IMG/VR virus record: IMGVR_UViG_3300037245_003639
DNA: 10,428 nt
Reading direction: 5' to 3' (one strand)
Origin: a virus
Shown: positions 612 to 10,428 of the stretch, piece after piece
Position numbering within the stretch: position 1 is the stretch's first letter
Layout of the letters: each line of letters begins with the position of its first letter
Position numbers and translations under genes: made by a program
Notes under the pieces: model-generated
Told to the model about the DNA's origin: nothing
What the model saw: the letters and a program-made list of their open reading frames with translations, nothing else
The model's database searches: none

Positions 612-3600
612 TTATCCGGTGTTCATAGCGTTTCCGCCACCCACGGCAGCAGATCGGTTGTATTGGACGCCTTGATCTTCTGATGTAAATTCATCAATTT
701 CATCAGCGACAGAGATGAGAGCTTTAGCGGCTTTCTTTAGAAGCACGGCAGCATCGACTACTTTATCCCCCGTAGTTCCCATGCCTGTCCCCCCACCAGC
801 AGCGGCTCCACGTCCACCTTGGCCGCGAGTTAGCTTCCGTGCTGTTTCTTGCTGGGCTTGGGTTTTGGCTTGAGCCTCTTTCTGCTTTGCGATTATAGCC
901 TCGTCGGCGGGGCTCCAAGGCATTTGTGAAGTCGCTATATTATGCCGTAGCATAGCCTCTCTCATGACTTTATTGAATTGTTTGAATTCAAGCTCCCGCT
1001 GTGCCGGGTCATAGAGTTTAGCGTTTTCTTTACGAGCCCGTTCAATCTCCTTCTGGGTTCGTTTTTGTTCTCTTGCGGTGCCACCCCTGCGACCCACGAG
1101 GCTGAATGCATAACCAGCTTTCCTGCGTAAGCCACTCTTCTGTTTTCGGGCTGCTCTTTTGACGTTCTCTGCCATGGAAACATCTTGAGCAGTTAATTGA
1201 GGAAAACCCAAATTTTGTTCAATTTGTTTCTGTGCTGCTGGAGTAACTGCTGCACCAGCAGGCGGAGCAACCGCTCCTGCTGCACCAGCAGGCGGTTTAG
1301 TCTGGGCTTCGGCCTGTGCTTTTATAGCTGCCCACACCCGGCTGCCGAATCGCTTCAATTTGACTTTATTCTCTCGTTTCGACTCTTCAGCAGCAAGAGT
1401 ACGAAGTTCCCCTTTTAATCGTCCATATTCCCCTAGTTCTTTAGCAACATTGTCCCGTAAGCGTTGAATATTCTCTTTCTCATGTTGTTCAACAACACCC
1501 CATCCTTTCTCTCTGCCTACCGGATCAAATATCGCTGTTTTAACTCTCCGGAACTTACGACCCAGACGTGATTCGTTTTCTCGGTCACCCCTTTCCAGCA
1601 GAGCCTCAGAAAGCGCCTTAGTATTATATTGCCATCGACCTTTGATTCTATCCCTCTCCTGTTGAAGACCGGCACGCTTCCTTTGTAGCTTGCTCCATGC
1701 AGCAGCATCTTTACCTCCTGGGCCTGCGGCAGCGGCAGCGGCAGCGGCAGCGGCAGCGGCATGGGCAGGGGCGGCACGGGCAGCAGGGGCAGCAGGGGCA
1801 GCAGGGGCTCCGGGTCTTCCTGGGAATTGAACTGTTCTTCCGCCCGTAACAACTCCAACTGGCAGTCGGGTTCTTAACCCACGAGCTGCTCCCCGAGCTG
1901 CTTCGCCTGCTATTAATCCCTCGTTCACTCCGCCTCGAACTCCACCAGCCACGGCTGTGCGGACAGCAGCCCGACCAGCGTAGTCACCAAGAGCATCAAT
2001 AGAATTTACAATTCTATCGGATGTTTCATAAATAGCATCAACCTGTGTTTCAGCAGAGTCATGGATACCCATAACAAGATCCATAGACTCCTTAGTGGCT
2101 TGTCGTTGGGCATCGTCCTGGATATTGGCTAAAGCAGAGCCCATTCGCTCTGCAATTTGCTCCCGACCGAATGCTCCTCCGCCAGTTCGCTGAAGCTCCC
2201 CATAGCCACCCGCTCCAAAACGATATGACGCCGCGTCGGCTCGATTAGCAGCTTCACCGACTTGACCAATCAAATAGTTGGCCTTAACAAGGCCCTTATC
2301 AAGAGCCATTCCAAGATTCTTTTCCTGGTCGATGATAATCTTCTCGAATTCACCCGTAGCAAAAGCTTGAGCCTGGACGGCATCGAGATATCCATCTCTC
2401 AGTTCTTTGACCATGTTTAGTTGGTCAGCCGTAATGCGTTTGATTTGATTCGCTAAATCTCGCTGTTGTTTGAGATATCCACGCGAAGCTCCCTCTTCGG
2501 CAATCCGCTGATTAACGATATCCAACTGGTTTTGCAGTAATCCCTTTTGCTGTTGCAGCTCTCTGGTAACTCGCAGCATTGCCTGGACACCAAGCGCGGG
2601 AGTTCCATAAAGGGCTTTACTAATGTCTAGGTCGGATTTGTGCAAATCTACAAGTTGTTTACTTAGGCTGGTATCGAGTTGAAGGCTCGCGAGTCTCGTC
2701 TCTAGGATAGTAGCTCTAAGAGCTTCAGCTTGAGCGATCTGGTTAAGTGCTTCGCCGATTTTCTTGTGGGCTAATAACTCTTCTGCCCTATTCTTGGCCA
2801 TTGCCAGATCTATCTCAGCCGTCTTAAGACTTTGATCCGCTAATTCTCGCATGAGCGGGATCGTCTTGGCCAAATTATCAGCGATTCGGTCAGCAAGTTC
2901 GGCGCCGCCTGCCAGCCCTCTAATGTCGAGATTAAATCCAAATTCTAATAGACTTTTCAGGCTCTTCACCTGAGATGTTAGCCCTTCTACTCCTTCTCTT
3001 AGCTTCTTGACTCGCTCTTGTAGCTGTCTCCATCTAACCAAATGTTCAGCTTCAACTGCCGGCGTTTTAGCTGAATCCTTTTTCGCATCTATTACATCTT
3101 GTATGTTCTTCCTGACAGCTTCAATAGCGTCAGCGTGGGCTTCTCCTGCCTTTATATCTTTATCGTCATCTCCCCATATAGCGAAGCCTGCAACTAGTGC
3201 GCTAACTGCTCCAATTCCCGCGATTACCCAACCGAGTGGTCCCATCATGGCCTTCCAGAATGAGGAGGCAGCTACTTTGGCTACCGCGAGTGCGCCGCTC
3301 ATACCATGAGTAGCAATTGTGGTAGCAACAATTTGAGCGGCCACCGTAGTAAAAGACTGGATGATGCCTTTTATGGCACTACCTACCCCTGGGAACAATA
3401 ACAAAGCCCCCACGATCTTCAATGGCGCGGGCAGGGCCACGATCCACTTAACTACCTCTGTCAAAAGCTTTCCGAGTGTTTCGAATGTCGAAAGTATTGG
3501 ACCTGAGTTATCTGTGATCCATGTAATAAACTCTTGCATTCCAACAGTTAGCGCTGGTAATATGTCCGAGGAAATATATTCCATTGCATTTTTGATGTCA

Positions 3601-4448
3601 GACCCAAAAGATGTCATAATTGCGGTCGCAGCATTCTGACCCACGGTTCGTATTTGTTCCATTGCTTGGGTCCAGGCCATGGATGCCTGCACATTGGCAT
3701 TCATCACATTTGGCAGGTTGGTCATAATACGAGTCATCTCAACTGCTACTTGTATTGAGTCAGGAGCCCAGAATTCTACTGCTTGAAACATTTGCATAGA
3801 ACCGAATTGACCTTCAAACTCTTTTATAATACGGGCGAAGGCAGCGCGATCAGTAAACCCGGTTGCGAATTCGTTGATCATCTTTCTGGCTTCTTCTCGG
3901 CCCACAACACGAGTGAGTTTGTCTGTTAGACTAGCAAGCGAATCCGAAACGCCAGAATCTAAAGCCGCAGCAGCAGTGAGGCTCTGTTTGGCAAAGTCTG
4001 CAAGGACATCCGCGACAGATTGCATCGAAGCAGCCATTATCCCGGCCTTTTCTGACACGTTAAGATATGATTGGCCTAAATCGCCTAGTGCTTGATTGGC
4101 GTTACGAGTAACGTAAGCAAGTTTCACATAACTCTGATTGTACTTGACTAATACTTTGATGGCCAGACCAACACTCCCGACCAGCCCTGAAATAACGCCA
4201 GTACCAATGGCCACTCCTTTAAAAAAGGCGCGAGTTGATTTGACAGTTTTCCAGATGCTTTTGTTTAGTTTGCCTAGGGATTTGTCAGCTTCTGTCGTCG
4301 CTTCTTCAAATTCTTCCAGGCCGCTGCTTGCTTCGCCCGCAACCTTTTTTATCTTCACTAAATACTTGAGCGCAGCTCCCACATTCTTGAGACTTTCTTC
4401 TATGGAAAGAAGAAGTTTAGTGTCTAGTTGGGTAGGAGCATCGGGCAT
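612..4448 (-). CDS. Tail tape measure protein (1278 aa)
   Basis: It is by far the largest ORF. The protein is Ala/Leu/Gln/Glu-rich with long predicted coiled-coil stretches (e.g. AEELLAHKKIGEALNQIAQAEALRATILETRLASLQ). It has internal glycine-rich hydrophobic segments (PLKIVGALLLFPGVGSAIKGII..., GPLGWVIAGIGAVSALVAGFAIWG) and a highly charged K/R/E-rich C-terminal third with a poly-Ala/Pro linker. ATG 4448..4446 overlaps the upstream stop (TAATG). It sits in a structural operon between small proteins and a further structural gene. Confidence 0.8.
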   Translation of the reverse strand: MPDAPTQLDTKLLLSIEESLKNVGAALKYLVKIKKVAGEASSGLEEFEEATTEADKSLGKLNKSIWKTVKSTRAFFKGVAIGTGVISGLVGSVGLAIKVLVKYNQSYVKLAYVTRNANQALGDLGQSYLNVSEKAGIMAASMQSVADVLADFAKQSLTAAAALDSGVSDSLASLTDKLTRVVGREEARKMINEFATGFTDRAAFARIIKEFEGQFGSMQMFQAVEFWAPDSIQVAVEMTRIMTNLPNVMNANVQASMAWTQAMEQIRTVGQNAATAIMTSFGSDIKNAMEYISSDILPALTVGMQEFITWITDNSGPILSTFETLGKLLTEVVKWIVALPAPLKIVGALLLFPGVGSAIKGIIQSFTTVAAQIVATTIATHGMSGALAVAKVAASSFWKAMMGPLGWVIAGIGAVSALVAGFAIWGDDDKDIKAGEAHADAIEAVRKNIQDVIDAKKDSAKTPAVEAEHLVRWRQLQERVKKLREGVEGLTSQVKSLKSLLEFGFNLDIRGLAGGAELADRIADNLAKTIPLMRELADQSLKTAEIDLAMAKNRAEELLAHKKIGEALNQIAQAEALRATILETRLASLQLDTSLSKQLVDLHKSDLDISKALYGTPALGVQAMLRVTRELQQQKGLLQNQLDIVNQRIAEEGASRGYLKQQRDLANQIKRITADQLNMVKELRDGYLDAVQAQAFATGEFEKIIIDQEKNLGMALDKGLVKANYLIGQVGEAANRADAASYRFGAGGYGELQRTGGGAFGREQIAERMGSALANIQDDAQRQATKESMDLVMGIHDSAETQVDAIYETSDRIVNSIDALGDYAGRAAVRTAVAGGVRGGVNEGLIAGEAARGAARGLRTRLPVGVVTGGRTVQFPGRPGAPAAPAAPAARAAPAHAAAAAAAAAAAAGPGGKDAAAWSKLQRKRAGLQQERDRIKGRWQYNTKALSEALLERGDRENESRLGRKFRRVKTAIFDPVGREKGWGVVEQHEKENIQRLRDNVAKELGEYGRLKGELRTLAAEESKRENKVKLKRFGSRVWAAIKAQAEAQTKPPAGAAGAVAPPAGAAVTPAAQKQIEQNLGFPQLTAQDVSMAENVKRAARKQKSGLRRKAGYAFSLVGRRGGTAREQKRTQKEIERARKENAKLYDPAQRELEFKQFNKVMREAMLRHNIATSQMPWSPADEAIIAKQKEAQAKTQAQQETARKLTRGQGGRGAAAGGGTGMGTTGDKVVDAAVLLKKAAKALISVADEIDEFTSEDQGVQYNRSAAVGGGNAMNTG
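1247..1295. repeat. Two copies of a 19-nt direct repeat (ctgctgcaccagcaggcgg) with a 30-nt period inside the TMP gene. It encodes PPAGAAGAVA / PPAGAAVTPA.
   Basis: The copies at 1247-1265 and 1277-1295 are read directly from the sequence. Confidence 0.7.
1728..1761. repeat. Hexanucleotide microsatellite (GGCAGC) x 5.7, encoding the poly-Ala run (AAAAAAAAAAAA) of the TMP
   Basis: ggcagcggcagcggcagcggcagcggcagcggca is read directly. On the coding strand this is GCTGCC = Ala-Ala. Confidence 0.9.
1782..1808. repeat. 9-nt tandem repeat (AGCAGGGGC) x 3, encoding the PAAPAAPAA segment of the TMP
   Basis: agcaggggcagcaggggcagcaggggc is read directly, adjacent to the hexamer repeat. Confidence 0.85.
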
Positions 4449-5164
4449 TATCTAACCTTTGGTGTAAAACGGTTTCGGCGGCGGCCAGGAACACGAGGGA
4501 AAAATTTCCTAAGAGCCCGCGTGGCCCAACTATTGGGTTTGGGAAATTCTAGGCCTCTATCGTAATATCTGCTCCGCCATTCTTCGGCGGACATACCGAT
4601 GGGAGTGTCCATGGCTCCCCAAAACACTTCAACAGGATTGGGCTGGTTTGATCTGGGTGCTGGAGTAGTAGGTTCTGTCTTTGGCTCTCGTGATCTCATT
4701 TTGTTTAGTGTCGCAGGTGAGAACTCTGCTGTTTTTGTGCTAACTCCAGATTCTATGGCGTGTTGAGGACAAAGCAGAGCCCCTCTTCCTCGACCCGCAA
4801 GATTCTCTGTATCCTTAGCGCATTTACCTGCTGTCCCACAAACAGCACAAGCACCCTGGACGAGAGAGTCTTTATTCTGATTAAGCCACTGATTTCGCGC
4901 AACAGATTGTTGGACTCTTTTGGCTGGACCCTCAACGAGATTACCTACATTGCCTTCAAATACGTCCGTCAGCAATCTTTCTGTCGCTCGACCAGCTTGT
5001 CCAGGTGTTGGAGGAGTTTTGGGGAGTCGGCTACCCCTGCCTGGGTAACCCATGCCTCTTCCCGAATATCCCATGCCTCCAGGCATACGTTGAGAAATAA
5101 TTTTTAGCATAGTGGAACTCCGTCTATTTATATTCCACAATTTTGTCAAAATTCCCCTTGACAT
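4448..5164 (-). CDS. Arg/Gly-rich protein with a Cys4 (zinc-ribbon-like) cluster, translationally coupled to the TMP. It occupies the position where a tail assembly chaperone is normally found. Function unknown.
   Basis: ORF of 238 aa. The more likely start is ATG 5110..5108, preceded by GGAG plus a 7-nt spacer (220 aa). The ATG at 5164 has no SD. Features are a GMGYSGRG/GMGYPGRG tandem repeat, C-x2-C-x5-C-x16-C-P-Q-H (GACAVCGTAGKCAKD...LLCPQH), and a very basic C-terminus (RKFFPRVPGRRRNRFTPKVR). Its stop TAA shares the A with the TMP ATG. Confidence 0.65.
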   Translation of the reverse strand: MSRGILTKLWNINRRSSTMLKIISQRMPGGMGYSGRGMGYPGRGSRLPKTPPTPGQAGRATERLLTDVFEGNVGNLVEGPAKRVQQSVARNQWLNQNKDSLVQGACAVCGTAGKCAKDTENLAGRGRGALLCPQHAIESGVSTKTAEFSPATLNKMRSREPKTEPTTPAPRSNQPNPVEVFWGAMDTPIGMSAEEWRSRYYDRGLEFPKPNSWATRALRKFFPRVPGRRRNRFTPKVR

Positions 5165-5184
5165 TCTTGAGCACTTGCTATATT
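5158..5184 (+). promoter_or_regulatory. Sigma70-like promoter candidate for the plus-strand moron: -35 TTGACA (5158-5163), 15-bp spacer, -10 TATATT (5179-5184). Alternative -10 TATTGT with a 17-bp spacer.
   Basis: Perfect -35 hexamer. The -10 hexamer is 5/6, but the 15-bp spacer is short for sigma70. The predicted TSS is ~3-5 nt before ATG 5194, giving a near-leaderless mRNA. The -35 is the right arm of an inverted repeat TGTCAA-N8-TTGACA (5144-5163). Confidence 0.35.
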
Positions 5185-5193
5185 GTTATCAGT

Positions 5194-5517
5194 ATGTGGG
5201 CTATCATAGGCATTGTGGCTGTGGGAGCATTGGTCTCTCTCTTTTTTCGGAGTTTGTCTAAACCTACTGCCGTAGAAAATGCTGCACAGAGCGGAGATAA
5301 AGCGGCTACTCTTGCAATGCTGATCCATCTCCTCTCAGCGGTTACGGCAGCCACCTGGATGTTCTGCTGGTGTATGCAAAGAGCAGGTAGCAAAATCAAT
5401 GCGATTGAGGTTACTGCCGCATTGTTAATGAGTACATTTGCCGCAGGCGTCGGCTACTGTTTGGGTATCTTTCTGTGGATGCTTATACTCTTCTCTTGGT
5501 GGATGGAATGGCTTTAG
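5194..5517 (+). CDS. Small integral membrane protein (107 aa, three predicted TM helices) encoded opposite to the surrounding operon. Moron-like accessory gene (candidate superinfection-exclusion or other membrane effector).
   Basis: Protein MWAIIGIVAVGALVSLFF...AATLAMLIHLLSAVTAATWMFCWCM...AIEVTAALLMSTFAAGVGYCLGIFLWMLILFSWWMEWL has three clean hydrophobic spans separated by short polar loops. It fills a 349-nt gap that has no credible minus-strand ORF. It has a promoter-like element immediately upstream. The listed TTG start at 5143 would lie upstream of that promoter, so ATG 5194 is preferred. Its stop TAG 5515-5517 overlaps the stop of the convergent 123-aa gene. Confidence 0.5.
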   Translation: MWAIIGIVAVGALVSLFFRSLSKPTAVENAAQSGDKAATLAMLIHLLSAVTAATWMFCWCMQRAGSKINAIEVTAALLMSTFAAGVGYCLGIFLWMLILFSWWMEWL

Positions 5518-5885
5518 ATAGCAATCTTACCCATGATGCCCGCAATAGCGGCTCTGGTCAAAACAGGATTCAGCTCTGACAGGCGTTGAGCCGTCATTTG
5601 ATAAACTTCGTCTCCATCATGCATTTCCAATAGAAGTGTTCTTATAACAGCATCATTGAAAGCGATAGGATTTACATCATTCTCGCTTTTGATCTCTGCG
5701 GCCCCCAGGATATAGTTGCTATCCCGATAAGAGGGCTTTCGGAATACAAACTTCAGCCTTTTGGGCTCGGGCTCTATATCCGGTGGAGCATCCTTTTCGT
5801 CGGGAGATGCCTGCAAATTGCCATCGACTTCCCAGGCCCATATATCCACGCTAATCTTTTCACTTTTTTTGACAAATAGTTCCAT
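5514..5885 (-). CDS. 123-aa acidic protein. Hypothetical, possibly a gpG-like tail assembly chaperone or head-tail joining protein.
   Basis: ATG 5885..5883 is preceded by TAGGAG plus a 7-nt spacer. The previous gene's stop TAG is part of the SD. The protein is acidic with a helical C-terminus (EVYQMTAQRLSELNPVLTRAAIAGIMGKIAI) and sits a few genes upstream of the TMP. Confidence 0.6.
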   Translation of the reverse strand: MELFVKKSEKISVDIWAWEVDGNLQASPDEKDAPPDIEPEPKRLKFVFRKPSYRDSNYILGAAEIKSENDVNPIAFNDAVIRTLLLEMHDGDEVYQMTAQRLSELNPVLTRAAIAGIMGKIAI

Positions 5886-5895
5886 TGGGGAACTC

Positions 5896-6135
5896 CTAAT
5901 CTACGTCTACCCATTGTCCAGTTGCTGGATCAATTCTTCGGTTTTGTGTAAATCTACCTCTCTGCCCTTTCTTGAATCCACTGAGGATTTCATCGGCTTT
6001 GGGGGCTTTCTTCTTCGGCTTATTAGCATCTGCTTCTGCTTCGCGGAAATACAAGAGCAGCCGCAGATGAGTTTGGAAATCGCCGTTATCCATCGAGCGA
6101 ATATCTTCCAGACTCATGCTTGTATGTTGCAGCAT
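5896..6135 (-). CDS. 79-aa Lys/Arg-rich small protein, hypothetical
   Basis: ORF from ATG 6135..6133 with a weak SD (GAAAG). Composition is basic, KPKKKAPK...KKGQRGRFTQNRR. Its stop TAG is fused to the SD of the next gene. Confidence 0.45.
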   Translation of the reverse strand: MLQHTSMSLEDIRSMDNGDFQTHLRLLLYFREAEADANKPKKKAPKADEILSGFKKGQRGRFTQNRRIDPATGQWVDVD

Positions 6136-6209
6136 GTAACTTTCGTAGATCCACGGGAGCAGGTCGTCATCTATATGCTTCCCTGCATAGAAATTATGAG
6201 CTGCCCCCT

Positions 6210-6734
6210 TTAGCCTTTTAGGTCGTCTTCTGTAGGCTCGGTTACTTTCTCGAAGTTAGTAAGTAGTTCCTGAGCTACAACGGGGTCAAGCATGTCGATG
6301 ATATCATACGTTACTTCAATAGCATTTCCTTGCTCATCGACCAGACTCCATTTCTTCAAACACATCTTCAGCTTCAAGTCTCGATATCTAACACCATCGA
6401 GTTCGTTTATGGTCTTGCCATCAGTCGTCGTAATTGTTTTCAAAGAGCGTGAAATGATGGTGTTTTGGTCTTTCCAGTTAGGTTTCGTCCAGTGGGTCAC
6501 AAGTTTGCTAATCATTTTCTTTGGATCTCGAACTTGCTTTATGTCTGGACGGCTGCCCGGTGTTGGAGATGGTTGTTCTTCTCCTTCCGACCAGTAACCT
6601 TTTTTCTTCCATTCGTCAAAATCGTCTTTACTCCGAATGAAGTGAAATAACGAGTTACCGTGCATTTTCACATCTTCAATGTAAAAGAGTTCAATTGCGA
6701 TAAATCGCTTAGTCGGGTCAAGTAATATGCCCAT
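6210..6734 (-). CDS. 174-aa protein, hypothetical. Candidate tail tube, connector or chaperone. Probable start ATG 6734, not the GTG at 6827 given in the ORF track.
   Basis: ATG 6734..6732 is preceded by the strong SD AGGAGG (6746..6741) plus a 6-nt spacer. The upstream 31 codons of the open frame overlap the terminator hairpin and the -10 element, so they are unlikely to be coding. The C-terminus is acidic (VTYDIIDMLDPVVAQELLTNFEKVTEPTEDDLKG). Confidence 0.6.
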   Translation of the reverse strand: MGILLDPTKRFIAIELFYIEDVKMHGNSLFHFIRSKDDFDEWKKKGYWSEGEEQPSPTPGSRPDIKQVRDPKKMISKLVTHWTKPNWKDQNTIISRSLKTITTTDGKTINELDGVRYRDLKLKMCLKKWSLVDEQGNAIEVTYDIIDMLDPVVAQELLTNFEKVTEPTEDDLKG

Positions 6735-6759
6735 AGTCAACCTCCTAGGTGGGTGTGCC

Positions 6760-6765
6760 ATTATA
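6760..6765 (-). promoter_or_regulatory. Exact TATAAT -10 hexamer on the minus strand, ~26 nt upstream of ATG 6734. Candidate internal promoter, but the -35 is weak (TGAACT at 18 bp).
   Basis: The minus strand reads ...CCCAAACTGTATAATGGCACACCCACCTAGGAGGTTGACTATG. No good TTGACA is present. It could be activator-dependent or fortuitous. Confidence 0.3.
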
Positions 6766-6789
6766 CAGTTTGGGATGGAGAGGAGTTCA

Positions 6790-6831
6790 TAAGAAGGAGA
6801 GGAGAAGGGGTGGGACCGAAGTCCCACCCCT
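6790..6831 (-). terminator. Intrinsic terminator / attenuator candidate. It is an 11-bp GC-rich perfect stem (AGGGGUGGGAC ... GUCCCACCCCU) with a C(UUCG)G tetraloop on the minus-strand transcript, followed by the U/C tract UUCUCCUCUCCUUCUU.
   Basis: Plus 6806-6831 is aggggtgggac cgaa gtcccacccct, a perfect inverted repeat. On the minus-strand RNA the loop is UUCG closed by C:G. It lies 12 nt after the stop of the 404-aa gene. The trailing tract is pyrimidine-rich but not a pure U-run. Confidence 0.6.
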
Positions 6832-6842
6832 CGAATATACCT

Positions 6843-8057
6843 TTAAGACCAAGCAGGATAAGCGCAGGACGTTGGGCTACCTGACTGGTCAGCGATAGCC
6901 TCGTAGTTGAATTGGTCGTTGCCCATGGCCAGATAATTGACCGTGGTCGTGTACAAATCATTAGTCAACGACATTTCTTCAATACGGAACACAACACCTG
7001 TCAAACGGCGACCAAAGATCGGATCTACCGGCCAGTCTGCGATGCCCGCTCGCCAATCTCGGGAATCAAATGAAGGACGAACACCCGGAACGACAACATC
7101 CGGCAATGTATCTTCACCGATAAAGAAGGCAAAGCGAATTTCGTTCTTCTCTGTGAAGCGGTCCTGGTTACTTTCAGCCAACTCACGCAACCTATTTTGA
7201 AGGCCCATCAACTGGAAACTGCCAGTCACTTCACGTTTCCCAACGTTGATATCAATTGGGAAGAGCGAACCCTGCATGCCATAGAACCGATCAGCGTTAT
7301 TGTTGATTTCAAGATTAAACTCTTGAACCTGGTTCGAGTAGAATAGGTCATGACCCTGACCACCATAGCAGCCCTGAATACCATTGACTGTAAAGTCATT
7401 CCATGTCAAAACACGGGCAGGTGACAAGAATTCACTAATCTCAGGTTCTGCCAAAGGATCATTTGGACGAATACGAGTGCGAGCGATTACGTTTACATCG
7501 AAGGTGATTGCCTCTTGCTGGGTTACAGTGAAACCTAAAGTATTCACAACAGCAGAGTCAAACGTAAACGCTGAGTGGTTAGCATACCGAACGTCTAATT
7601 GCATATCGTCAAATAGCAAACGACCATGGTTTCCACGGGCTGTAGTCCAGCACCAAAGGTTATTCAGAATACCACCGGCAGTCGTAAGATCAGCGACTTC
7701 GGGACAGCCACATGCGCTGCCAATACAATAAAGGTCAGGATCATCTACATCAGCCACGATAGGCAGACTAAGAGTTCCTTCGACAAGCTTCGGTCCCAAC
7801 TGATAGACCGTCTTATCGATACGGCCATCAATGACATCTGGGAGTGTGATTTCTTGAGAAAGGTTGATATCAGCGGATGTGACACGGAGAATATTGTTAG
7901 CACCCAGCTTATTACTCCGCATAATAACGAAGCCGACCCATCCCATGTTTGCAAAATGCCCCGTAAGGTCTGGATTGGAATTAGGGAAGGCGGTTACCGT
8001 CTGATCCGTTGAGGTCAGCCCTTCGCAAGTTGAGATTGCACCTGCTGAACAAGGCAT
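6843..8057 (-). CDS. Major virion structural protein, 404 aa. Candidate major capsid protein, or tail sheath if the module is P2-like (sheath, tube, small proteins, TMP). Not resolvable from sequence alone.
   Basis: ATG 8057..8055 has SD GGAGA plus a 6-nt spacer. The protein is Gly/Thr/Asn/Asp-rich and looks beta-rich. It is followed by the strongest hairpin in the window, typical of the most abundantly expressed structural gene. It contains 8 Cys, including C-x7-C and C-x4-C-x-C clusters. Confidence 0.55.
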   Translation of the reverse strand: MPCSAGAISTCEGLTSTDQTVTAFPNSNPDLTGHFANMGWVGFVIMRSNKLGANNILRVTSADINLSQEITLPDVIDGRIDKTVYQLGPKLVEGTLSLPIVADVDDPDLYCIGSACGCPEVADLTTAGGILNNLWCWTTARGNHGRLLFDDMQLDVRYANHSAFTFDSAVVNTLGFTVTQQEAITFDVNVIARTRIRPNDPLAEPEISEFLSPARVLTWNDFTVNGIQGCYGGQGHDLFYSNQVQEFNLEINNNADRFYGMQGSLFPIDINVGKREVTGSFQLMGLQNRLRELAESNQDRFTEKNEIRFAFFIGEDTLPDVVVPGVRPSFDSRDWRAGIADWPVDPIFGRRLTGVVFRIEEMSLTNDLYTTTVNYLAMGNDQFNYEAIADQSGSPTSCAYPAWS

Positions 8058-8070
8058 AGTTTTCTCCTAC

Positions 8071-8553
8071 CTAAGAGATTCTCGAACTGGTAATCGGGTA
8101 GCCAGCTTGACTAGAAATATCGGCAAATTCCTGCGGCACAGTGATTTTGACATCCTGGCTGTCATTGTAACGACCGTAAATATCTGGATCGGTATCTTCA
8201 TCTGTTACCCCGGGAACATATCCGTCACTTCCAGAGCTGTCTGACTCCAACCAATAGTTAATGTTGGTGTATCTTGTTGCGTTATCCTGAGTACGGGCTT
8301 TCGAAAGAACATGAGCCTGTAGCGAGCCTATAGCGCCAACGACCGCAGCGGGCGTCTGAGTATACAACGCCTGCACAGCCGTATACGCCGTATAAAATGG
8401 CTGCAAGAGGTCAAGCTCAGGATCGAAAACCTGCATTAGGACGATCTCATATGCCGCATCGTAATAGTAGTCGGCCACACCCGCTATCTGAATCTGCGCG
8501 TTAGCGTAGAGAGTAGAAATCGTCTCGTACTGTGATGATTTGATGGCTGCCAT
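8071..8553 (-). CDS. 160-aa acidic protein (Tyr/Asp-rich), hypothetical. It is co-transcribed between the glycosyltransferase and the major structural protein.
   Basis: ATG 8553..8551 has SD AAGGAGA (TAAGGAGAGACTGATG), and the previous stop is embedded in that SD. Its own stop TAG is embedded in the next SD (TAGGTAGGAGAAAACTATG). Confidence 0.6.
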   Translation of the reverse strand: MAAIKSSQYETISTLYANAQIQIAGVADYYYDAAYEIVLMQVFDPELDLLQPFYTAYTAVQALYTQTPAAVVGAIGSLQAHVLSKARTQDNATRYTNINYWLESDSSGSDGYVPGVTDEDTDPDIYGRYNDSQDVKITVPQEFADISSQAGYPITSSRIS

Positions 8554-8563
8554 CAGTCTCTCC

Positions 8564-9811
8564 TTACAGCGTTTCTAGTGAAAGCACTTCGTTTGAAGTC
8601 TCCAACGTTTTGATCATCTTCGCCAGAACTTCTATAAACGCCTGCTTGCTGTCCTGTTTTGAAAATACGGAGAGTTCTTCTCTGTATCCTTCCATCTTTT
8701 CGCGATTTTTGTGCATCCATAATAATCTCTTCTTTAACCCTACAGGATTAGATACTGTGAGATATGTCTCACCTACTGTCATTAGTTTGATACCGGGAAC
8801 CAGCAGAGAATCCCTGCTAAATTCCGTTATCTCTTTCTTTTCGAGCTTTTCAACCAAATCCCTGTTCGAACCACAGTCGCTCATGATAGGAAAACAGCCC
8901 GATGCCATTGCCTCCCAGACCGACATAGAAGTTGCGGAAACCAATGGTATTGATACAAAAACATCCGCTTTAGCATATTCCTCGGCCAATTCGTCAGTTG
9001 AGATGCCCTCTACCAGAGACACAAATTTGTCAGGGAAGCGAATAAACTCATTATCAGGGTCAAATCTTTTACGAACAGTTTCAAGATTGTATTCTCCTTG
9101 GTCACAAATATTAGCGTGAATGTATAGCTCAAGTTCAGGTATCGCCTGTCGCAATTCGGAACATACTTCCATTATCATCGGAAGGTTGTCCGCTTGAGAC
9201 GATTTGCCTAGTGCCATCACTCGGAATTTATTCAGGTCTCGCTTTTCTTCTCTGAAAAATCGCTCATCACAATCAACAAAACTAGCCTCTATATAGGGCT
9301 TCTGAAAAAACTGTTCAATCTCATCACGAGCTAAGTGACTTGCACACAGAACTCCATCCATGTAATCCATAAGTTCAGATAATTCATCCGAAATCGGATA
9401 TTGGGATTGAGCCAGCACGGCCATCCATTTGAATGGTTTAGAAACGAACGTTTTGACAGCTTTCATAAACGCTGCTTCTACCAAATTTCCGATGGTAATT
9501 ACAATATCAGGCTCTAGTAGATTGATAGCCTCATAGATAGGCACAGGATCTGAAAGCCCCTTCAAAAGAGGCATCACCGGAATCTTGTATTCACGAGGAC
9601 TTATTGGTCCATCTGTATCATTAGGCGAGATGGCCTCAAAGCAGTAGTAATATTGTTCATCAACATCTGGGACATGATACGAAATATCATGAGCCCAAGA
9701 AAGACTTATGACAGAGTGTCCTTCAAACAAAAAATGCTTCAGCATTGAAGCGTGAAGCCGACTAACAGATGTAGTGTTATACGGCGACATTCCAATCGTT
9801 ATCACTTTCAC
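8564..9811 (-). CDS. GT-B fold glycosyltransferase, GT4/GT1-like (415 aa), GTG start
   Basis: The N-terminus MKVITIGMSPYNTTSVSRLHASMLKHFLFEGHSVISLS fits the first Rossmann domain pattern of GT-B enzymes (MKI..I.....GG......L...L...GH.V.V). The C-terminal region ...ADVFVSIPLVSATSMSVWEAMASGCFPIMSDCGSNRDLV matches the conserved donor-binding helix (S.xEgfg...lEAMAxGxPvIat..gg..e.v) of retaining GT4 enzymes. GTG 9811..9809 has SD AGGAGA plus a 6-nt spacer, whereas the first in-frame ATG (codon 8) has no SD. Confidence 0.6.
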   Translation of the reverse strand: MKVITIGMSPYNTTSVSRLHASMLKHFLFEGHSVISLSWAHDISYHVPDVDEQYYYCFEAISPNDTDGPISPREYKIPVMPLLKGLSDPVPIYEAINLLEPDIVITIGNLVEAAFMKAVKTFVSKPFKWMAVLAQSQYPISDELSELMDYMDGVLCASHLARDEIEQFFQKPYIEASFVDCDERFFREEKRDLNKFRVMALGKSSQADNLPMIMEVCSELRQAIPELELYIHANICDQGEYNLETVRKRFDPDNEFIRFPDKFVSLVEGISTDELAEEYAKADVFVSIPLVSATSMSVWEAMASGCFPIMSDCGSNRDLVEKLEKKEITEFSRDSLLVPGIKLMTVGETYLTVSNPVGLKKRLLWMHKNREKMEGYREELSVFSKQDSKQAFIEVLAKMIKTLETSNEVLSLETL

Positions 9812-9821
9812 ACTCAGTCTC

Positions 9822-10428
9822 CTAAAAAGTCAAAGGGTCAACATAAGGAACAAGGCGTCTAACCTCTTCTTCGGCGGTATATGAAATCTGAGCCGCTTTG
9901 AGCATTGTTCCTTTATTTACAGTTCCATAATTAGTTGTGTGTGGTATCGCATTAAAAAAGTGACGTTGCGGCATAATCACCGTATCACCAACAGAGAAAC
10001 TTTGGGCCAATGGCCTGAGTAATTGCAGAGTTCCCCCACCCATATCTTCGATAACACGATTGGGGATTAGGTGATCTTCGCTTTCCAGGAAAATCCAACT
10101 GCCATGCGTGCAGGATGTAAAATCAGGATCGGTTACTTGAATTGTCGATTCACCAGCCGCAGCATCCTCAATAAGAGTTGTGCTGAAATAAGGTTGGACC
10201 AAAGGATATAATGAACGAAACAAAGACCTGCGGATCGCTTTTACATAAGCGTGCATTAGTGCATACTGGGATTCGTAATAGGCTAATCCGTCGATATAGA
10301 CTGTGATATCGATCTCAAATTTCTCTCTGGTGGATTCGAGTGTCAACCATTCGCTGCTTAGACTCTTGGCATCTACAGTAATAGCGGGGTACTGCTGGAT
10401 AACAGCAGGGTCTCCCAAGTAAACTGCC
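9822..10428 (-). CDS. 3' portion (>=202 codons) of a gene whose start lies beyond the window end. Hypothetical.
   Basis: The frame is open from the window edge. The M at 10418 in the ORF track is actually a TTG codon, and the reading frame continues upstream (...AVYLGDPAVIQQ...). Stop TAG 9824..9822 is fused to the glycosyltransferase SD (TAGGAGACTGAGTGTG). Confidence 0.55.
   Translation of the reverse strand, partial: AVYLGDPAVIQQYPAITVDAKSLSSEWLTLESTREKFEIDITVYIDGLAYYESQYALMHAYVKAIRRSLFRSLYPLVQPYFSTTLIEDAAAGESTIQVTDPDFTSCTHGSWIFLESEDHLIPNRVIEDMGGGTLQLLRPLAQSFSVGDTVIMPQRHFFNAIPHTTNYGTVNKGTMLKAAQISYTAEEEVRRLVPYVDPLTF

Follow-up and report, generated by a model that had tools for sequence, protein, structure and literature searches.

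The stretch of viral DNA analysed here, 10,428 nucleotides (nt) of the IMG/VR record IMGVR_UViG_3300037245_003639 and called the window throughout, encodes a glycosyltransferase (GT)-like protein of 415 amino acids (aa) among the genes of a phage tail. We find that this gene is a fixed and tightly linked member of a neck and tail block in a lineage of very large, uncultured phages. The block consists of a ~305-aa protein, the GT, a ~130-160-aa protein, the tail tube protein, the tail assembly chaperones and the tape measure protein. Profile searches and a structure model identify the 415-aa protein as GT4-like with a GT-B fold. As to its function, the explanation that we prefer, with somewhat less than even confidence, is that of a soluble late glycosyltransferase modifying one or more neck or tail proteins encoded on its own transcript, with the tube as the most plausible substrate.

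Two GT4-type Pfam families recognise the protein above their gathering thresholds, PF13692 (Glyco_trans_1_4; 34.0 bits, cut-off 27) and PF00534 (Glycos_transf_1; 31.5 bits, cut-off 26.4), and a search of PHROGs returned phrog_2170 'glycosyltransferase' (1.3e-9) over residues 1-330. The Pfam matches are confined to the C-terminal half and pass by small margins, the GT4 matches in NCBIfam stay below threshold, and 23 of the 40 homologues found by a word-indexed search have no Pfam domain on record. An AlphaFold2 model built from a 38-sequence alignment (predicted local distance difference test 87.8; predicted template modelling score 0.85) contains two strand/helix blocks followed by long C-terminal helices. 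It has the architecture of a GT-B fold, with two Rossmann-like beta/alpha/beta domains around a cleft and a C-terminal helix that crosses back to the N-terminal domain. A preliminary description of this DNA had proposed a GT-B, GT4-like enzyme encoded by this open reading frame (ORF) and had named a Pfam search and a structure prediction as checks. The ORF is present as described, and both checks gave the anticipated result, namely Glycos_transf_1/GT4 and the two-domain fold, so that the lack of a GT-B match, named there as refuting, did not occur. At the level of sequence, the family profile matched no solved structure in the PDB at E≤0.01, and at E≤10 it gave short alignments limited to the region of the EX7E motif. 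A Foldseek search of predicted viral structures returned only generic GT4-type proteins with at most 16% identity. Neither a fusion of the GT to a known virion protein nor a likeness with one was found by structure comparison, this Foldseek search included.

The gene itself is genuine: besides the 40 homologues, an exhaustive profile search of 1.84 billion proteins recovered 154 representative clusters at E≤1e-30. The conserved N-terminus MK[VI]xTIG.SPY of 38 homologues supports the GTG start; JGI called a gene of 393 aa for this sequence, 22 residues shorter than the 415-aa ORF. Relaxing the threshold of the exhaustive search to 1e-10 and 1e-3 raised the number of clusters to 246 and to only 1,981, respectively, which indicates that the GT family is a discrete clade well apart from ordinary GT4 enzymes.

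The position of the gene carries the main finding. We compared ten loci, the window and nine related ones (handles beginning with L), which were chosen via matches to the GT and, independently, via tube matches absent from the GT search. All ten share the same gene order: a protein of ~300-313 aa, a GT homologue (391-416 aa in the relatives), a protein of ~130-160 aa (129-158 aa in the relatives) and the tube. According to blastp and hmmsearch, the occupant of the slot is a GT homologue in every related locus. The GT is therefore not an occasional passenger. Its sequence identity to the window is 29-45% across the nine related loci, and in the seven loci in which the neighbours were measured the tube has 55-62% and the 160-aa protein 39-51% identity. 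The local G+C content of the loci ranges from 0.28 to 0.47, and throughout this range the G+C content at third codon positions of the GT gene tracks that of the neighbouring genes. This agreement points to long residence and to selection for co-expression with the tail genes instead of a recent moron insertion. A recent horizontal acquisition, which the lower G+C content of the gene had suggested, was rejected on the same grounds.

The linkage is equally evident from the junctions on both sides of the gene (Table 1), where the stop codon overlaps the Shine-Dalgarno sequence of the following gene and the spacer is 10 nt. The two junctions are almost identical in sequence (TAGGAGACTGAGTGTG and TAAGGAGAGACTGATG). 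Across the loci, the upstream junction has spacers of -4 to 22 nt in nine of ten cases, with called genes overlapping by 47 nt in L010, and the downstream junction has spacers of 9-14 nt in eight of ten; taking both sides together, lengths of 9-22 nt prevail. All genes counted in the window lie on the minus strand. Promoter-like and terminator-like matches in the window do not exceed the expectation from shuffled sequence (17 vs 14.3±4.1 and 7 vs 10.0±3.0, respectively). The arrangement fits one leftward operon to which the GT is tightly linked, with transcription itself deduced from the sequence. Tight linkage on both sides, two genes upstream of the 404-aa protein in a leftward virion-morphogenesis operon, had been claimed before and agrees with these junctions. 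What has to be amended is the character of the operon: the GT is embedded in it as stated, but the module is a neck and tail module, not a generic or capsid one.

The lineage that carries this block consists of very large phages. The contig from which the window derives measures 403,172 bp, contigs confirmed to carry the module measure 402, 483, 522 and 557 kb, and proteins of the tube family occur on contigs of up to 580 kb. All 40 GT homologues come from metagenomic or unnamed assemblies, several of them from contigs of 99-522 kb, and IMG/VR lists one of the related contigs as a viral genome. Neither a megablast of the whole window nor tblastn searches with the GT and the tube found a relative among 50,697 records of cultured phages. 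The GT family was also not found in 185,579 representative genomes of bacteria and archaea by a pattern-based scan, in which absence is not proof. One tube homologue is labelled as phage tail tube protein in a metagenome-assembled genome of Promethearchaeota, an assignment that we take to be a binning artefact. Our literature search did not find a paper describing this lineage. The 'moraphage' jumbo phages (PMC12619734) were considered and rejected as the same lineage because they are T4-like myoviruses in which no tape measure was found.

The conserved residues of the GT were analysed in a close clade of 41 sequences and in a wide set drawn from the exhaustive search, which comprises 134 diverse full-length members with a median identity of 26% to the window. 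Of the two acids in the EX7E motif of GT4 enzymes and their retaining GT-B relatives, the first contacts the donor sugar and the second binds the ribose of the nucleotide. Alignment of the family profile with E. coli WaaG by hhalign places WaaG E281 at S292 and WaaG E289 at E300 of the window protein. Position 292 is Ser in 32 and Ala in 9 members of the close clade, and 75% Ser, 10% Ala and 9% Glu in the wide set, in which 12 distant members still have the canonical first Glu. Position 300 is Glu in 24, Asp in 14, Gln in 2 and Asn in 1 member of the close clade, and 82% Glu, 10% Asp and 7% Gln in the wide set. The GT4 phosphate motif GR.....K, placed by motif spacing and secondary structure, reads G202-K203...Q206-x-D208-N209. 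Its first position is K203 (75% Lys and 9% Arg in the wide set) and its second D208/N209 (83% Asn). At the N-terminus, the Gly-rich loop reads S9-P10-Y11, and a beta-hairpin is inserted at residues 54-82. Other residues of the putative cleft are likewise peculiar to the family.

Across the wide set, the highest values are found for G305 (98%), D152 (97%), P10 and W129 (96% each) and H232 and N234 (90% each), followed by S9 (86%), N209 (83%), E300 (82%, with a further 10% Asp), D42 (81%) and K203. In the close clade H41, D42, E94, K203, Q206, D208, N209, Y230, D251 and S265 are 93-100% conserved (H41 98%; D42 and N209 93%; K203, Q206 and D208 95%; Y230 and S265 100%). GT-B enzymes bind donor and acceptor in loops that follow beta-strands, and according to the secondary structure of the AlphaFold2 model most of the conserved polar residues of the GT lie in such loops of both Rossmann domains. 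Both domains are acidic in all ten loci, with isoelectric points of 4.2-5.9. Acidic domains are unlike those of membrane-anchored GT-B enzymes with lipid acceptors and of DNA-binding GTs, and we count this acidity weakly against membrane or DNA acceptors. In our reading, these residues suggest a GT4-derived protein whose cleft has been remodelled yet is still constrained. With the first EX7E Glu lost and the second phosphate-binding Lys apparently lost too, the donor would be bound in a mode unlike that of textbook GT4 enzymes. With Ser in place of the first Glu, we can only infer catalytic competence of the GT itself. Judged from its sequence, the protein is probably an enzyme, and a pseudo-enzyme is a serious possibility.

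If tail proteins are indeed glycosylated, the GT would be made late, from one transcript with the neck and tail proteins. The C-terminal Rossmann domain would still bind a nucleotide sugar, with the ribose-binding acid E300 and with K203, N209, H232 and N234 conserved, and the N-terminal domain, with S9-P10, H41-D42 and G108-D109, would bind a soluble acceptor. The sugar would then be passed to one or more of the co-produced tail or neck proteins. The tube would be the likeliest target, being by far the most abundant product of the operon in phages with very long tails, and it would be modified before or during tail assembly. We count the retention of the same slot over deep divergence, the conservation of polar residues at cleft-type positions and the acidic domains in favour of this explanation.

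Several observations weigh against it. The GT family retains only the second half of the EX7E hallmark of GT4 enzymes, with the first Glu turned into Ser or Ala and the second kept as Glu or Asp, and Asn appears to stand where GT4 enzymes have their second phosphate-binding Lys. The putative ligand-binding residues are just 75-90% conserved family-wide, whereas the top columns are mostly Pro, Gly and Trp, and the location of the conserved residues in the cleft is deduced from their strand-end positions alone. The GT also diverges more rapidly than the structural proteins encoded beside it, and a housekeeping-type enzyme would not usually do so. PhoH and an actin-like ATPase belong to the conserved block as well, a few genes upstream of the GT in the related loci. 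The block is thus not purely structural, and the position of the GT is weaker evidence than it appears. The possible acceptors add two further points. In mycobacteriophages, the modified C-termini of capsid and tube subunits are reportedly Ser/Thr-rich, but no such C-terminal tail was found on the tube among 115 homologues and the window protein. Short homologues of the 160-aa protein lack its Ser/Asp-rich loop, yet the GT is still present in their loci. The 160-aa protein as an obligatory substrate of the GT was rejected because this loop is dispensable.

Several of these points would also follow if the protein were a non-catalytic GT-B pseudo-glycosyltransferase serving as neck or tail assembly factor or minor virion component, perhaps still binding a nucleotide or sugar. 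Such a protein might, for instance, hold the tube or completion proteins before the very long tail assembles. Non-catalytic GT-B partners exist, such as GtfB of the GtfA/GtfB pair. A half-degenerate EX7E motif and the apparent exchange of the canonical second Lys for Asn are in line with this idea, as is the difference between the candidate catalytic residues and the structural Pro, Gly and Trp columns, which are 95-98% conserved. In most of the ten loci the gene is coupled to its structural neighbours as tightly as a structural gene, and it evolves faster than the tube, as structural or assembly accessory proteins of phages often do. The failure of the family profile to match a solved GT by sequence at the threshold given above and the lack of Pfam domains on record for so many homologues point in the same direction. 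A pure scaffold, however, would have no need for the array of conserved polar residues at cleft-type positions of both domains. In addition, 92% of the 134 members keep Glu or Asp as ribose-binding acid, the 12 distant members with a canonical first Glu suggest a continuum with active enzymes, and no fusion to or similarity with a known virion protein was found. On balance, we regard a non-catalytic role as unlikely, though not lightly dismissed.

An active GT need not act on the virion. Its acceptor could be a glycan of the host envelope or a precursor thereof, which might for example block re-adsorption to debris or superinfection, or it could be a small molecule; in that case, late timing alone would explain why the gene lies in the tail module. 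The presence of the non-structural genes PhoH and actin-like ATPase in the block makes position no proof of a virion role, and one related locus (L004) has a gene of the UDP-glucose/GDP-mannose dehydrogenase family ~9 kb upstream of the GT. The genomes of large marine phages are often rich in GTs, which are read as cell-surface modifiers (PMC12801897). We regard this alternative as unlikely. The slot between two tail-module genes is fixed in all ten loci over their whole range of G+C content. Auxiliary genes that act on the host do not typically behave in this way and tend to lie in variable islands. The acidic N-terminal domain also gives no sign of a membrane-binding patch, which is weak evidence, and scans with Pfam, PHROGs and NCBIfam found no other glycan-pathway genes in the window. 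The preliminary description had further considered a GT acting on DNA and had proposed a comparison with the T4 enzymes. Such a GT would modify hydroxymethylated phage bases like the T4 alpha- and beta-glucosyltransferases and would only happen to be encoded among late genes. In its favour, the GTs with which viruses hypermodify DNA are reportedly diverse (Pyle et al. 2024, via PMC12619734). The comparison did not favour it: the similarity of the GT to the T4 enzymes is far weaker than its similarity to GT4 enzymes, and the combination of closest similarity to the T4 alpha- or beta-glucosyltransferase with a DNA-binding surface was not found. Acidic domains in all ten loci appear ill-suited to binding DNA, and the gene is linked to tail genes, not to genes of nucleotide metabolism or replication. 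No base-hydroxymethylase was seen in the ~17-21 kb around each of the nine related loci, of which L005 was represented by its ORF list only. We therefore consider a DNA-modifying enzyme very improbable.

Glycosylation of a tail protein would have a precedent in mycobacteriophages, where phage-encoded GTs reportedly modify capsid and tail tube subunits (Freeman et al. 2023, Cell Host Microbe 31:1216, via PMC11600133 and PMC12619734), the glycans attach at the C-termini of these subunits (PMC12619734) and several tandem GTs lie beside an O-methyltransferase (PMC11600133). The mycobacteriophage and actinobacteriophage systems (Che8, Corndog, Myrna) are the only well-documented case of the kind of virion glycosylation that the preliminary description proposed. 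The locus described here differs in having a single GT between tail-module genes. No second GT or methyltransferase was found in the window or among the called genes of the nine loci for which genes and Pfam domains were listed. The C-terminus of the tube is a conserved short motif with a Cys in place of a Ser/Thr-rich tail, and tblastn showed no sequence relationship to proteins of cultured phages. On these grounds, the GT cannot be shown to belong to the virion-glycosylation systems of mycobacteriophages.

Among solved structures, the nearest is that of another virus-encoded GT-B protein, chlorovirus NY-2A B736L / PBCV-1 A546L (PDB 3OY2/3OY7), with 13% identity. B736L keeps the catalytic residues of enzymes that bind GDP-Man and binds GDP-mannose, whereas its own substrate is unknown (PMC9614988). 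In contrast, the GT family has lost the first Glu of EX7E; B736L also comes from a eukaryotic giant virus and lies outside any tail module. Chloroviruses, the virus group of B736L, glycosylate their own capsid (PMC9614988), which we count in favour of tail glycosylation. Canonical retaining GT4 enzymes of bacteria such as PimA (2GEJ), BshA (6N1X), WaaG and sucrose-phosphate synthase (6KIH) differ from the GT in features described above: Ser or Ala for the first Glu, G-K203...D208-N209 for GR...K, S9-P10-Y11 for the Gly-rich loop, the additional beta-hairpin and the acidic N-terminal domain. The GT4-type protein O-glycosyltransferases of Gram-positive adhesins (GtfA/GtfB, 4PQG; SdgB, 7EC1) are structurally farther from the GT than the GT4 enzymes with lipid or small-molecule acceptors. 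They carry extra domains and target long Ser-rich repeats, which are absent here. What would set this GT4-derived phage family apart is its remodelled donor site together with a firmly fixed position in the core order of tail genes.

Table 1. Features of the window and, in the last row, a gene of the related loci
Feature	Position	Strand	Remarks
GT-B fold, GT4-derived glycosyltransferase-like protein	8564..9811	minus	415 aa, GTG start
Upstream junction of the GT	9812..9824	minus	Read from sequence: TAG stop 9824-9822, overlapping AGGAG Shine-Dalgarno 9823-9819, 10-nt spacer, GTG at 9811
Downstream junction of the GT	8554..8566	minus	Read from sequence: TAA 8566-8564, AAGGAG Shine-Dalgarno 8565-8560, 10-nt spacer, ATG of the 160-aa gene at 8553
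C-terminal ~200 aa of conserved ~303-313-aa protein, neck or tail-completion position	9822..10428	minus	N-terminus beyond the window end
160-aa conserved protein, helical bundle with variable Ser/Asp/Gly-rich loop at residues ~104-133	8071..8553	minus	
Tail tube protein, 404 aa	6843..8057	minus	PF18906 Phage_tube_2 2.5e-12; phrog_290 7.6e-14
Tail assembly chaperone pair	5896..6734	minus	G-like ORF ~6734-6210; T-like extension 6219-5896 (79-aa ORF region)
Small conserved tail-module protein, 123 aa, chaperone-like paralogue	5514..5885	minus	Same-position homologues in 8 loci
Lineage-variable 238-aa protein with CxxC...CPxH motif, directly upstream of the tape measure	4448..5164	minus	ORF list
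Tape measure protein, 1278 aa, Ala/Pro-rich low-complexity stretches	612..4448	minus	phrog_58 6.3e-8; phrog_1533 1.6e-5
Actin-fold ATPase	L001:6966-8072, L003:6929-8032, L004:5954-7075, L006:3174-4304, L007:3190-4296, L008:2276-3358		

The other genes of the window form a siphovirus-type tail module in which tube, chaperone pair (G/GT) and tape measure follow in order (Table 1), and no match to a sheath family was obtained in the window or in the nine loci with listed genes and Pfam domains. The 404-aa protein had been described as a major structural protein. It is structural, Cys-rich and encoded two genes downstream of the GT, but it is the tail tube, as its matches to PF18906 and phrog_290 indicate, and not a capsid or generic structural protein. 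Of its 214 homologues, all 120 that were listed carry PF18906. Six Cys columns (C3, C11, C118, C136, C230 and C398) are conserved in 79-100% of 116 sequences, consisting of 115 homologues and the window protein; through disulfides, these Cys may help to stabilise a very long tail. The C-terminus has the conserved motif P-x-[ST]-S-C-x-F-P-x-W, and the last 14 residues of the family contain 27% Ser/Thr compared to 15% overall. The 160-aa protein was rejected as an identifiable tail terminator since its fold is a generic helical bundle, and profile searches of the PDB gave no significant match for either this protein or the tube. The truncated product at the window end is 47-64% identical to full-length proteins of 303-310 aa directly upstream of the GT in L001, L003 and L004. 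Its gene has a counterpart in all ten loci, and the ~305-aa protein has no significant match in Pfam, PHROGs or the PDB.

In the chaperone region, a candidate -1 programmed frameshift lies at 6205-6225, where CTA AAA GGC TAA would slip to AAA AGG CTA AAG... The 214-aa protein of L003 aligns by tblastn over both frames (residues 27-114 with 6503-6216 and residues 114-213 with 6219-5908 in the -1 frame), which is the signature of a frameshifted chaperone pair of the G/GT type. The G-like proteins of L001 and L003 match 6734-6216, and the G-like chaperone weakly matches phrog_9046, as does the L001 orthologue of the 123-aa protein. L003, L004 and L006 have a separate fused gene in place of the candidate frameshift pair (214, 258 and 271 aa). 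The region between the chaperones and the tape measure is a hot spot of variable genes, often on the opposite strand (L001:14344-15069, L004:14877-17016, L006:11129-15184, L007:10696-11115 and window 4448-5517). The genes found there in L006 encode a thioesterase, a sigma-70 region-4 protein and a protein with C-terminal domains of RNA polymerase alpha. The sole match of the window's 238-aa protein spans 38 aa of a 96-aa gene product of L003, and a plus-strand ORF at 5143-5517 (124 aa, hydrophobic) was rejected as a gene because it has no homologue in the related loci.

In L001 and L003, large proteins encoded at the equivalent place match the tape measure protein. The G+C content of the window peaks inside its gene, at 1500-2000 (0.584 vs ~0.47 elsewhere), owing to an Ala/Pro-rich low-complexity stretch (APAAPAAPAARAAPAHAAAAAAAAAAAAGPGG), and a second stretch rich in Ala, Gly and Pro lies further on. 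Compared to the 1,278 aa in the window, the tape measures of relatives have 3,443, >3,459, 2,698 and 2,102 aa (L004:17394-21230, L006:15612-17167, L007:11472-17224 and L001:15431-21251). Tape measure length translates into tail length at ~1.5 Å per residue. By our own estimate, this implies tails of up to roughly 0.5 µm in the relatives.

The actin-fold ATPase of the related loci (360-376 aa) is encoded ~3 kb upstream of the GT, outside the window and at the position expected for the capsid gene. It was rejected as capsid protein since it matches the Pfam family Volactin over its full length (3.5e-66) and contains GLDxGT, FGAG and AGGTA motifs; its identity between loci is 64-68%. Our literature search found no paper on a conserved actin homologue beside the neck and tail genes of a giant-phage lineage, and this arrangement seems to be undescribed. 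In L010 (833-3133, 766 aa), the actin-like gene is split by an intein with an HNH endonuclease (Intein_splicing and HNH_3 between two Volactin halves), and L005 has a double-length ORF of 739 aa at the equivalent position (4918-7137). A gene for a LAGLIDADG homing endonuclease is inserted among the connector genes of L004 and L008. Apart from the dehydrogenase gene of L004 (649-1485), no further sugar-nucleotide gene was seen in the vicinity of the module.

Phage-encoded virion glycosylation has so far been documented mainly in actinobacteriophages, where it alters recognition by antibodies and the GTs are accessory. A GT-fold gene that is fixed in the neck and tail gene order points to a role in building or protecting an unusually long tail. 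Tentatively, we propose that in these undescribed giant phages, with contigs of 0.4-0.58 Mb, the GT-B protein is an obligatory and lineage-defining part of tail morphogenesis, either as a dedicated tube glycosylase that would coat thousands of subunits or as a fold recruited as structural or assembly component. If this holds true, the lineage would provide the first example of a sugar-transferase fold built firmly into the core order of tail genes of phages and not carried as an accessory. Since over half of the family has no Pfam domain on record, these genes are invisible in current metagenome annotations. A catalytic GT would provide a defined pair of enzyme and substrate for cytoplasmic protein glycosylation in phage assembly and represent a new family, descended from GT4 enzymes, whose donor site has been remodelled, whereas a non-catalytic one would exemplify the recruitment of an enzyme fold into virion assembly.

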